Shown piece after piece: positions 29,989 through 32,000 of a DNA stretch of 32,000 bases. This DNA is from Geobacter metallireducens GS-15 (GTDB lineage Bacteria; Desulfobacterota; Desulfuromonadia; Geobacterales; Geobacteraceae). The notes under the pieces were generated by a model that had not been told where the DNA came from, did no database searches, and saw only the letters and a list, made by a program, of their open reading frames with translations. The DNA lies in the NCBI RefSeq assembly GCF_000012925.1, contig NC_007517.1, forward strand, positions 3,630,001 to 3,662,000. The letters are read 5' to 3'. Position numbers and translations under genes: made by a program. The number at the start of each line of letters is the position of its first letter. Position 1 is the stretch's first letter.

Positions 29989-31647
29989 ATGAGCATCAGC
30001 GACAAGAAACAGGCCTGGCAGGACACTGTCGTGGCCAAGAGCATCGCCAGATCCCCGGAGCGGAAGCCCGAATTCCGCACCACTTCCAATATCGAGATGG
30101 AGCGCTGCTTCACTCCCGGCTTCGACGACTATCCGGGCTACGAAGAGGAGCTCGGCTTCCCGGGCCAGTACCCCTTCACCCGCGGCGTCCAGCCCACCAT
30201 GTACCGGGGCCGCTTCTGGACCATGCGCCAGTACGCCGGTTTCGGCACGGCCAAGGAATCCAACGAGCGCTACAAATATCTGCTTCAGGCGGGTCAGACC
30301 GGCCTTTCCGTCGCCTTCGACCTCCCCACCCAGATGGGGTACGACTCCGACGCCGCCATGGCCCAGGGCGAAGTTGGTAAAGTAGGGGTCGCCATCGACT
30401 CCCTGGCCGACATGGAGATCCTCTTCGACGGCATCCCCCTGGACAAGGTCTCCACCTCCATGACCATCAACTCCACCGCCGCTATCCTCCTAGCCATGTA
30501 CATCGCCGTGGCCGAGAAGCAGGGTGTCTCGCCGGAGAAGATTTCCGGCACCATCCAAAACGACATCCTCAAAGAATACATGGCCCGGGGGACTTACATC
30601 TACCCCCCCCAGGAGTCGATGCGGATCATCACCGACATCTTCGCCTACTGCAAAGACAACGTCCCCAAGTGGAACACCATCTCCATCTCCGGCTACCACA
30701 TCCGCGAGGCGGGCTCCAGCGCCGTGCAGGAAGTGGCCTTCACCCTGGCCGACGGCATCGCCTACGTGGAAGCCGCCATCAAGGCTGGCCTCAACGTGGA
30801 TGAATTCGCCCCCCGGCTCGCCTTCTTCTTCAACGCCCACAACAACCTCTTGGAGGAAGTCGCCAAGTTCCGGGCCGCCCGCCGCATGTGGGCCACCATC
30901 ATGAAAGAGCGGTTCGGGGCCAAGGATCCCAAGTCCCTCATGCTCCGCTTCCACACCCAGACCGCCGGCTGCACCCTCACCGCCCAGCAGCCCGACAACA
31001 ACATCATGCGGGTCACCATCCAGGCCCTGGCCGCCGTTCTCGGCGGCACCCAGTCGCTCCACACCAACTCCCGCGACGAGGCCCTGGCGCTCCCCACCGA
31101 AGACTCGGTCCGGATAGCGCTCCGCACCCAGCAGGTCATCGCCTACGAATCGGGCGTGGCCGACTCCATCGACCCCCTGGCCGGCAGCTTCCTCGTGGAA
31201 TCCCTCACCGACCAGATCGAAATGGCCGCCACCGAGTACATCAACAAGATCGACTCCCTCGGCGGCGCCGTCGAAGCCATCTCCCGCGGCTTCCAGCAGA
31301 AGGAAATCCAGGACTCCGCCTACGCCTACCAGCGGGCCATCGAAACCGACGACCTGATCATCGTCGGGGTCAACAAGTTCACCGTCACCGGCGAGCCGGC
31401 CCCCGAGCTTCTCAAGATCAAGGAAGAGGTCGAAATCGCCCAGAAGAAGTCCCTCGGCGACATGAAGGCCAAACGCGACGACGCAAGGGTCAAGGAAACC
31501 CTCGCCGCCCTCGCCGCCGCCGCCAAGGGAACCGACAACCTCATGCCGCCGATCCTCAACGCTGTCAAGGCCTACGCCACCCTCGGCGAAATCGCCAACG
31601 TCCTCCGCGACGTCTTCGGTGTCCACCGGGAGACGGTGGTGCTGTAA
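29989..31647 (+). CDS. Methylmalonyl-CoA mutase-type acyl-CoA mutase, catalytic (substrate-binding TIM barrel) subunit without B12-binding domain
   Basis: [93 protein letters not shown]. It ends in the linker region, and no DxHxxG cobalamin domain is present. Confidence 0.93.
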
Positions 31648-31651
31648 TTTT

Positions 31652-32000
31652 ATGGGAATAACACGGAGAGACGGAGAAACGGAGAAAAAGCTCTTAGAAT
31701 CAGAATTGACCGACCTGATTATTGGCAAAGCCATTGTTGTCCACAGTACGCTCGGTCCAGGGCTTCTCGAATCAGTTTATGAAGCCTGCCTTGCCTATGA
31801 ATTATCAGAAGCCGGCTTACACGTAGAACGTCAAAAGGTTTTGCCGGTACGATACAAGAACATCAACCTTGATGATGGACTCCGCATGGATCTGGTTGTC
31901 GAAAACAGGATCATTCTCGAATTGAAGTGCGTTGACACCATTCTCCCGGTCCACGAAGCACAGCTTCAGACCTATTTGAAGCTTTCAGGATTGAGAGTTG
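31652..32000 (+). CDS. GxxExxY protein (PD-(D/E)XK nuclease-like superfamily), C-terminus beyond window end
   Basis: Not in the ORF track (no stop in the window). My translation from ATG 31652: [116 protein letters not shown]. It contains G-L-L-E-S-V-Y (GxxExxY) and a D...ExK-like pattern (MDLVV...ELK). About 47% GC over 31701..32000 by hand count, against about 67% in a mutase sample. Confidence 0.8.
   Translation, partial: [116 protein letters not shown]
31657..31690 (+). repeat. Hairpin element copy E, left arm only (partner arm expected beyond the window end)
   Basis: AATAACACGGAGAGACGGAGAAACGGAGAAAAAG. The first 20 nt are identical to the left arm of copy C. It lies inside codons 2-13 of the GxxExxY ORF. 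Confidence 0.85.

Follow-up and report, generated by a model that had tools for sequence, protein, structure and literature searches.

A GxxExxY nuclease gene between inverted subrepeat arrays in the mutase-epimerase gap of a Geobacter operon

Results

The cassette and its host operon

The stretch of Geobacter metallireducens GS-15 DNA analyzed here (contig NC_007517.1, positions 3,630,001 to 3,662,000; 32,000 nt, hereafter the window) ends inside a gene that its list of open reading frames (ORFs) does not contain. The frame opens at an ATG at 31652, 4 nt past the TAA stop codon of a methylmalonyl-CoA mutase gene, and is still open at base 32000, after 116 codons; it is missing from the list because it runs off the window end. 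An earlier note on the same letters had drawn attention to this ORF as the start of a GxxExxY nuclease-like gene whose first codons lie in one arm of a hairpin element. The ORF is indeed seen in the sequence. Its beginning coincides with a left arm of the layout AATAACAC-GGAG-AG-ACGGAG-AA-ACGGAG-AAAAAG (31657-31690), in which the terminal AATAACAC (31657-31664) overlaps the first ACGGAG and the subrepeats at 31663-31668, 31671-31676, and 31679-31684 are followed by AAAAAG.

An exact look-up of the mutase protein retrieved a contig (L001) that matches the window without a single difference over the 7349 nt compared and extends 8.7 kb further. There, the ORF continues uninterrupted to a stop codon at 9937-9939 (window-equivalent 32060-32062), giving 136 codons, and TTTTCTCCGTGCTCTCCGTATCTCCGTGTTATTC, the inverted partner of the left arm, begins directly after this stop (cassette, L001 9529-9973). 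The partner arm that had been looked for downstream thus exists, although the TTTTAG expected in front of it is absent from the full-length element. In the whole unit of 441 nt, the gene stands between an arm composed of GAATAACAC and three ACNGAG octamers and the same arm in inverted orientation; both arms match those of short hairpin elements elsewhere in the window, as the earlier note had proposed. An arm 12-mer, AATAACACGGAG, occurs nine times in the window with at most one mismatch (0.04 copies expected), and eight of the nine copies make up four such short elements.

A methylmalonyl-CoA epimerase gene starts 14 bases past the right arm (TIGR03081, 176 bits; cut-off 115). The cassette sits in the intercistronic mutase/epimerase gap of a Geobacter propionate/succinate operon, and not, as had been suggested, in a slot for a B12-binding subunit or MeaB: in cassette-free genomes, the epimerase gene directly follows the mutase gene. 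The base composition of the cassette gene is foreign. The GC content is 47.0% over 31701-32000, in line with the ~47% estimated previously, and the low value holds over the complete gene (44.8%); the mutase gene has 63.4% rather than the ~67% estimated, the epimerase gene 62.5%, and the whole window 61.8%. At third codon positions (GC3), the cassette gene has 0.50 compared to 0.90 and 0.86 in the neighboring genes.

The encoded protein

The 116-aa fragment was assigned to TIGR04256 with 127.2 bits (cut-off 35) and to PF13366 with 124.8 bits (cut-off 22; E = 3e-36), which bears out its identification as a GxxExxY (PDDEXK_3) protein. The name-giving motif, G37-L-L-E40-S-V-Y43, lies in the first core helix, and G37, E40, and Y43 are invariant in 39 homologues. 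In the same 39 sequences, E40, D80, K92, Q104, and Y108 never vary, and E90 hardly does. By alignment, these residues are the helix-Glu, D, ExK, and QxxxY set of RecB-like nucleases, and the putative catalytic residues are intact. In junction cassettes, nonsynonymous divergence (pN) is 0.11 to 0.21 and synonymous divergence (pS) is 0.73 to 0.88; with pN far below pS, the protein is under purifying selection. One copy of the gene (L059) is a pseudogene.

The AlphaFold2 model of a 90%-identical homologue (pLDDT 90.1) is disordered only in the arm-encoded residues 1 to 12. The top Foldseek matches to this model were Cas4 SSO0001 (E = 4e-4), lambda exonuclease, LHK-Exo, MGME1, and AddAB, with TM-scores of ~0.5. 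The protein thus models as a RecB/Cas4-like PD-(D/E)XK fold, the fold for which the earlier note had asked. PADLOC returned a weak Cas4 match, and a sequence search of the PDB gave nothing even at E ≤ 10. The protein resembles Cas4/RecB nucleases and lambda exonuclease in predicted fold and in the helix Glu, D, ExK, and QxxxY residues, but it is only about half as large, and the matches are modest (TM ~0.5; sequence E ~3e-3). Cas4 proper differs further: the four cysteines of its Fe-S cluster have no counterpart (C46 is the sole invariant Cys), and the neighbors of the cassette gene are metabolic genes, with no CRISPR context. A 2012 survey of PD-(D/E)XK proteins lists the function of TIGR04256/PF13366 as “Unknown” (PMC3424549).

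The left arm encodes residues 2 to 13 of the window protein, as had been noted; this does not extend to homologues as a conserved N terminus. The upstream ATG of L116 lies out of frame, many homologues start just past the arm, and the 124-aa homologues lack these residues. The arm-encoded N terminus is not a conserved protein feature.

Bracketing across the GxxExxY family

A metagenome scan with the 136-aa protein yielded 80 loci encoding proteins 41 to 77% identical to it, 69 of which were testable for arms. For each, the stretches immediately before and after the gene were compared, and their best ungapped inverted match was scored. Inverted arrays scoring ≥15 flank 48 of the 69 genes, and the score is ≥20 at 31. 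Control windows of the same length, 190 in all, taken from the same contigs at a displacement of 700 nt or more, stayed below 15 without exception (maximum, 13). The arm-gene-arm architecture is family-wide and crosses phyla.

The arms consist of two to four subrepeats at 8- to 10-nt spacing, usually behind a terminal ...TTCAC(C). The family-wide bracketing that the earlier note had asked about is thus found, but the subrepeat sequence differs between lineages (ACGGAG, GCGGAG, ACGAAG, GCGAAG, GCAAAG, ACAAAG, GCAGAG, ACAGAG, ACGCAG, GCCGAG, GCCAAG, and CCAGAG) and its type tracks protein clusters. At two Bacteroidota loci, whose proteins are 48 to 54% identical to the query, the arms (AATAACAC[AG]GAG) are nearly as in Geobacter. 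Gene-less hairpins of the matching subrepeat type lie beside or near GxxExxY genes in other lineages, too (L193, L196, L130, and L143). A single viral contig was matched, and arms are present there as well.

One Bacteroidia metagenome-assembled genome (MAG) has a different arrangement (L041, 5420-5800). Three tandem units of ~200 nt come after its GxxExxY gene, and every unit closes with a right-arm-like ...CTCCGTGCCTCCGTGTTATTTTTTT; a matching left arm is absent upstream.

Arms and gene-less elements

The four gene-less elements (Table 1) are the strongest local inverted repeats in the window, with arms of 28 to 36 nt that are 87 to 93% complementary. To these, the relatives sampled add at least ~75. 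They were collected in a one-genome-per-species scan for AATAACACRGRGNNACNGAG, which covered at least 120 genome blocks, mostly of Geobacteraceae and Desulfuromonadales, the source genome not being among them. When each match was paired with its best inverted partner, at least 83 elements with a bimodal length distribution were obtained: 61 to 190 nt (mode, 142 to 144), a few of 258 to 358 nt, and 438 to 439 nt with the gene. The elements of 258 to 358 nt contain other palindromic elements nested inside.

The profile of 70 arm pairs reads A-A-C-A-C-N-G-A-G-n-n-A-C-N-G-A-G-n-n(n)-A-C-N-G-A-G. Named bases are 94 to 99% conserved in subrepeats 1 and 2, and the variable spacer shifts subrepeat 3. 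The N positions are free, and the two arms of one element agree there in only 56 to 73% of cases. Since the motif bases are kept while N is free, the conserved feature is a phased motif array and not perfect complementarity. Spacer dinucleotides differ among elements, yet tend to match between the two arms of the same element.

Two explanations of these elements were discarded. A derivation of the short elements from the cassette by internal deletion found no support in a six-frame profile search of 71 of them, which gave only arm-encoded residues. Integron attC sites do not fit either, since the termini GAATAAC/GTTATTC disagree with the RYYYAAC/GTTRRRY core and the arms flank the ORF at either end instead of forming one 3′ hairpin. 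No Rfam family covers the elements: in the window and L001, only a tRNA reached the gathering threshold, and related elements gave only subthreshold matches to miRNA-precursor models. The orientation of typed short elements relative to neighboring genes is mixed (only nine elements).

Several further insertions were seen within the elements. A near-identical stretch of ~24 to 27 nt (GCTTGCCTAGAGGCACCTACTTCTGGCAG or close variants) breaks the right arm in L071, L119, L124, and L094 (three MAGs) and looks like a still smaller nested insertion element. In nested ACGGAG-type elements (L050 3256-3533, L019 1748-2042, and L025 2728-3085), the palindromes sit in the loops. The nested hairpin of L050 is of the GCAAAG type, a subrepeat found around other GxxExxY genes, and the nested palindrome of L025, CCCCTCCC...GGGGGAGG, resembles one in the G. 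hydrogenophilus mutase-epimerase junction (L210).

Two subfamilies of short elements outside the source genome (L021, L058, L067, L068, L080, L113, L120, and L124; L038, L048, L086, L108, and L125) have conserved interiors of ~143 nt. They also keep their flanks, CGGCAGTTCG ahead of the left arm and TCAAATGCTTTTT behind the right arm; from these conserved flanks, the mobile unit in the genomes concerned is longer than the arms. In the four window elements, the interiors are unrelated.

Turnover at the mutase-epimerase junction

Related genomes show the mutase-epimerase junction in several states (Table 1). The L001 and L209 cassettes occupy the same junction, and their divergence was compared to that of the flanks. 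The mutase genes have a pS of 0.245 (91.7% nucleotide identity) and the epimerase genes a pS of 0.29 (89.6%), while the cassette genes reach 0.665 (68%). Over 21 pairs, cassette similarity did not correlate with host similarity (r = 0.19). Because cassette and flank divergence are uncoupled, the cassettes are not simply inherited with their flanks but have been repeatedly inserted or replaced. The vertically inherited, RAYT-like single master copy that we favored at first, when all gene-bearing copies proved to lie at one locus, is ruled out by a divergence three times that of the flanks and by the missing correlation with the host. At this hot-spot junction, cassettes are gained and lost, and one cargo is exchanged for another.

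Presence/absence polymorphism was found at three orthologous gaps: tmk-mutase, carboxyltransferase-carboxylase, and mutase-epimerase. The tmk-mutase gap contains a short element in L116 and L059 and none in the window, L064, L115, and L128; the 26110-26232 element is absent from the orthologous gap of Geobacter CP010430. Mobility is supported by these orthologous gaps, occupied or empty in relatives, and by the hairpin elements nested in others.

Two details of the junction sequence are recorded here. A ribosome-binding site after the right arm, AAAGGTTTTCCC(A/G)TG, seemed at first to be part of the element; the empty G. pickeringii junction carries the same GAAAGGATTTTCCATG, and this ribosome-binding site therefore belongs to the host. 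The last codons of the mutase gene, CACCGGGAGACGGTGGTGCTG (31619-31640), contain GGGAGACGG, which is similar to the arm subrepeats CGGAGAGACGGAG. It might be a pseudo-arm that draws cassettes to this site, or a coincidence.

Table 1. Features of the window and states of the mutase-epimerase junction in related genomes.
Feature	Position or genome	Strand	Remarks
Methylmalonyl-CoA mutase large subunit, N-terminal-domain type	29989..31647	+	PF01642 E 1e-233, TIGR00641; TAA 31645-31647
Junction TTTT-ATG-GG	31648..31656	+	Cassette ATG 31652-31654, 4 nt past mutase stop
Left arm AATAACACGGAGAGACGGAGAAACGGAGAAAAAG	31657..31690	+	Also codes ORF residues 2-13
GxxExxY/PDDEXK_3 nuclease gene, first 116 of 136 codons	31652..32000	+	Gene end at window-equivalent 32062
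Right arm	~32063-32096 (window-equivalent, beyond window)	inverted	Read from contig L001
Gene-less hairpin element, 154 nt	12868..13021	.	Same-family arms
Gene-less hairpin element, 109 nt	20465..20573	.	Between larA-like gene and glcD; left arm abuts TGA stop
Gene-less hairpin element, 159 nt	21993..22151	.	Between glcD and Fe-S subunit gene
Gene-less hairpin element, 123 nt	26110..26232	.	Between carboxyltransferase and biotin carboxylase genes
Junction: GxxExxY cassette	L001 (source), L064, L115, L116, L128, L209		
Junction: GxxExxY cassette with decayed gene	L059		
Junction: empty, 53-58 nt	G. sulfurreducens-type contig L207, G. pickeringii CP009788 (L208)		Small GC-rich hairpin and native ribosome-binding site
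Junction: 170-nt gene-less remnant	G. hydrogenophilus (L210)		
Junction: 121-aa PF05635/TIGR02436 four-helix-bundle gene between inverted 7-nt arrays	CP010430 (L211)		Epimerase 96% identical to source

A second cargo in the same architecture

In CP010430, the cassette (L211 9529-9990) is orthologous in position to window 31648 onward and carries a four-helix-bundle gene. Its arrays are AAGAATTCAGAATTCAGGAGTCAGAATTCAGAAT on the left and ATTCTGAATTCTGACTCCTGACTCCTGAATTCTT on the right, and a short gene-less hairpin with the same arms lies just upstream. The encoded family, PF05635, takes its name from the ORFs found in 23S rRNA intervening sequences, and Avd of diversity-generating retroelements (DGRs) is a relative. 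To our knowledge, TIGR02436/PF05635 has no assigned role outside DGRs. Homologues 69 to 83% identical to the CP010430 protein come from Geobacteraceae, Nostoc, Scytonema, and Phycisphaerae.

Seven loci were inspected, six of them with homologues of the CP010430 gene from other phyla in different operons. At every one, the gene fits closely into the space between a pair of co-directional host genes, with heptamer arrays of the GAATTCAG/GAGTCAG type on both sides. The array on the left directly adjoins the ATG at six loci and lies ~40 nt upstream of it in CP010430; the array on the right supplies the protein's final residues, typically ILNSDS, and then the stop codon. The outermost bases of the two arm families are alike, GAATTCA in four-helix-bundle arms and (G/A)AT(T/A)(C/A)CAC in GxxExxY arms. 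Arms of the type found around these intervening-sequence-named genes (IVP-type) do not occur in the window. The pairing of cargo family and arm family is strict, which suggests an interaction between cargo and arms.

Expression and RNA-level signals

No sigma-70-like promoter was found upstream of the cassette and no Shine-Dalgarno sequence before its ATG, in accord with the earlier reading of this region. The cassette ATG and the mutase stop codon overlap (TAATG) in L059, L064, L115, and L209; in the window, the two are 4 nt apart. The overlap fits translational coupling to the mutase and speaks for the earlier idea that expression depends on the host operon. In the predicted transcript fold, the arms pair around the whole ORF; this is the dominant feature of the fold (z = −4.4) and occurs in the minimum free energy and centroid structures alike. 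Arm mismatches have no sense-strand G:U bias (13 G:U-type versus 24 A:C-type; 42 of 79 are transversions). Given this lack of bias, and gene-less elements in either orientation, there is no positive sign that RNA pairing is a selected feature. The cassettes split operons, and their arms are routinely translated as spurious N- or C-terminal extensions, for example, ITRSNGATEK and ILNSDS.

Neighboring genes and other repeats

A gene for a 211-aa “thymidylate kinase” family protein (29261-29896) lies inside the carboxylase-mutase-epimerase operon, and its position is kept in relatives. It is probably not a true Tmk, because it scores 55.9 bits against a dTMP kinase cut-off of 83.25. Downstream of the operon, ~5 kb past the window end, is a nucleotidyltransferase/HepT-like (MNT-HEPN) toxin-antitoxin pair (L001 14495-15305), in place of which a TumE-family gene lies close to the epimerase gene in CP010430 and L209. 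An array with 15-, 45-, and 180-nt periodicity (~12 × 45 nt, 66% matches) at 2264-3047 lies in long overlapping ORFs on both strands and is presumably a repetitive Ala/Glu/Lys-rich coding region.

Discussion

We interpret the ORF at 31652 as the 5′ end of a compact, mobile, hairpin-bracketed 441-nt cassette whose arms would be cis sites and whose nuclease would act on them. We give this reading a probability of about 0.55. The observation made in the earlier note is confirmed, and its interpretation is supported, with the corrections given above; that GxxExxY genes are “selfish” is something we infer. In the proposed mechanism, the nuclease would recognize the octamer arrays, whether these are single-stranded or form a DNA hairpin or cruciform, and would make the cuts needed for copying or moving the unit. 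The gene-less elements would be its non-autonomous partners and would depend on it in trans, much as REPINs depend on RAYTs. The cassette gene, having no promoter, would be translated by coupling to the mutase, and in the transcript the arms could close a ~33-bp stem around the ORF, as in 23S rRNA intervening sequences. Insertion inside operons may be tolerated because this stem encloses the whole ORF.

Several observations weigh against a mobile cassette whose own nuclease acts on the arms. A cargo that is not a nuclease occurs in the same architecture, and even at the same site; therefore, the cargo need not be a mobility enzyme. About 30% of the GxxExxY homologues, including some whole clades, have no detectable arms, and among the at least 120 genome blocks sampled only one site bears the gene. 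The interiors of the short elements contain no gene remnant. No direct repeats that would indicate a target-site duplication were found beside the arms, and the divergence between occupied and empty gaps is too great for the element ends to be placed. Cassettes could also be replaced without transposition, through homologous recombination in the conserved genes on either side.

The cassette shares its architecture with REPIN-RAYT systems, MITE/IS pairs (MITE, miniature inverted-repeat transposable element; IS, insertion sequence), and ORF-bearing 23S rRNA intervening sequences, and it lacks one defining trait of each. The recurrence of its layout across bacterial phyla, with gene-less copies and a second cargo gene, suggests a family of mobile gene cassettes not described before. 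In REPIN-RAYT systems, too, an enzyme gene is flanked by inverted copies of a short repeat, gene-less doublets are scattered between genes, and the units form hairpins (Nunvar 2010; Bertels & Rainey 2011, PMC3116915; bioRxiv 10.1101/2021.07.10.451892). The enzyme there is an HUH/Y1 (IS200-like) transposase, whereas here it is a putative PD-(D/E)XK nuclease of ~125 to 136 aa with PF13366 as its sole Pfam match. The repeat there is a single GC-rich palindrome and here a tandem array of 7- to 10-nt subrepeats, and RAYTs are mostly vertically inherited and single-copy, whereas the cassette gene is not inherited with its flanks.

The 23S rRNA intervening sequences (PF05635, TIGR02436) likewise have a small promoterless ORF within terminal inverted repeats able to form a long stem in a transcribed region. 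They lie in helix 25 or 45 of 23S rRNA, however, whereas the cassette occupies an mRNA intercistronic gap and has a nuclease cargo (PF13366). We know of no description of the arm subrepeat structure for 23S rRNA intervening sequences. MITE/IS pairs, exemplified by Chunjie, resemble the present elements as short AT-rich multicopy intergenic sequences with terminal inverted repeats that occur within operons and vary at orthologous sites. Chunjie, a MITE of Geobacter uraniireducens, is described as having 178 to 235 bp, 21-bp terminal repeats, and 9-bp direct repeats (PMC3184786, PMC10969869). Most elements here are 60 to 190 nt long, with subrepeat arms of ~33 nt and no visible target duplication; no classical transposase is associated with them. 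Free-standing homing endonuclease genes are likewise small nuclease genes with a foreign composition that occupy a recurrent site between conserved genes, but they lack the bracketing inverted arrays and abundant gene-less copies seen here. The searchable literature contained nothing linking GxxExxY, PDDEXK_3, PF13366, or TIGR04256 to repeats, though a description may exist in journals outside its reach, and this arm is absent from the supplements of the G. bemidjiensis genome paper.

The main rival to the mobile cassette is an RNA element similar to intervening sequences, with a stem of arms around passenger cargos. Its stem would be cut by a host RNase, such as RNase III, so that the insert is excised or insulated; the nuclease would serve another purpose, for example, defense or repair, and movement would depend on something else. 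The strongest argument for it is the existence of two unrelated cargo families, one of them not a nuclease, and in CP010430 the same site and architecture carry the very protein family that is named after 23S rRNA intervening sequences. Enclosure of the whole ORF by the arms in the predicted fold is also what such an element would have, as is the location of promoterless cassettes inside operons between co-directional genes. It accounts poorly for the arms themselves, whose mismatches show no G:U preference and in which the octamer N is often mismatched between partners while the motif is kept. Nor does it explain why gene-less elements occur in either orientation, often between convergent genes, or why each cargo family keeps its own arm family. 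On balance, we consider it improbable, at about one chance in four.

The two other explanations that we weighed attribute the arrangement either to the host or to homing. The arms could be ordinary intergenic palindromes (REP- or MITE-like with an unrelated transposase, or mRNA stabilizers) that flank a host nuclease gene, or the autoregulatory operators of such a gene. Gene-less copies do far outnumber gene-bearing ones, their interiors are unrelated to the gene, and Geobacter genomes are rich in multicopy intergenic sequences (PMC2700814, PMC2996986). We nevertheless strongly disfavor this explanation, given the bracketing of 48 of 69 homologues by lineage-specific subrepeats compared to 0 of 190 controls, Bacteroidota arms nearly the same as those of Geobacter, a gene with a GC3 of 0.50 in an operon at 0.86 to 0.90, and presence or absence at one junction among close relatives. 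A homing-type selfish nuclease, on the other hand, would cleave the empty site or a gene-less allele and spread by repair from the occupied copy, the arms being its homology or recognition region. Repeated occupation of one specific junction by diverged cassettes suits such a nuclease, and the intercistronic position resembles that of free-standing phage homing endonuclease genes; PD-(D/E)XK homing endonucleases exist, as in the case of I-Ssp6803I. Yet dozens of gene-less elements with intact arms persist unconverted beside the gene-bearing copy, and the empty G. sulfurreducens-type and G. pickeringii sites share only a GC-rich hairpin and no arm-like sequence, which makes homing very unlikely.

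We also put forward, tentatively, a broader proposal that goes beyond the single cassette. GxxExxY and four-helix-bundle (Avd-like) genes may be alternative cargos of one unrecognized superfamily of hairpin-bracketed cassettes, the PD-(D/E)XK protein being a new element-encoded mobility nuclease that reads the arrays. Such cassettes would move among intercistronic gaps, and probably rRNA helices, across phyla. Their ends, in this equally tentative joint scheme, would be inverted arrays of 7- to 10-nt subrepeats behind a shared (G/A)AAT(T/A)(C/A)CA(C/G).

Through the cassette concept, what was a “possibly selfish paralogue family” becomes an element whose ends and cis sites are defined and whose enzymology can be tested, and the cassettes would be a nuclease-based counterpart to REPIN-RAYT systems. 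They would also link GxxExxY and four-helix-bundle genes to the question of how 23S rRNA intervening sequences arose and spread. Searches with GxxExxY and with PF05635 each returned at least ~8000 homologues at E ≤ 1e-10. If the superfamily proposal is true, these two very large families without known function would gain one, and rRNA intervening sequences would gain a mechanism and an origin.

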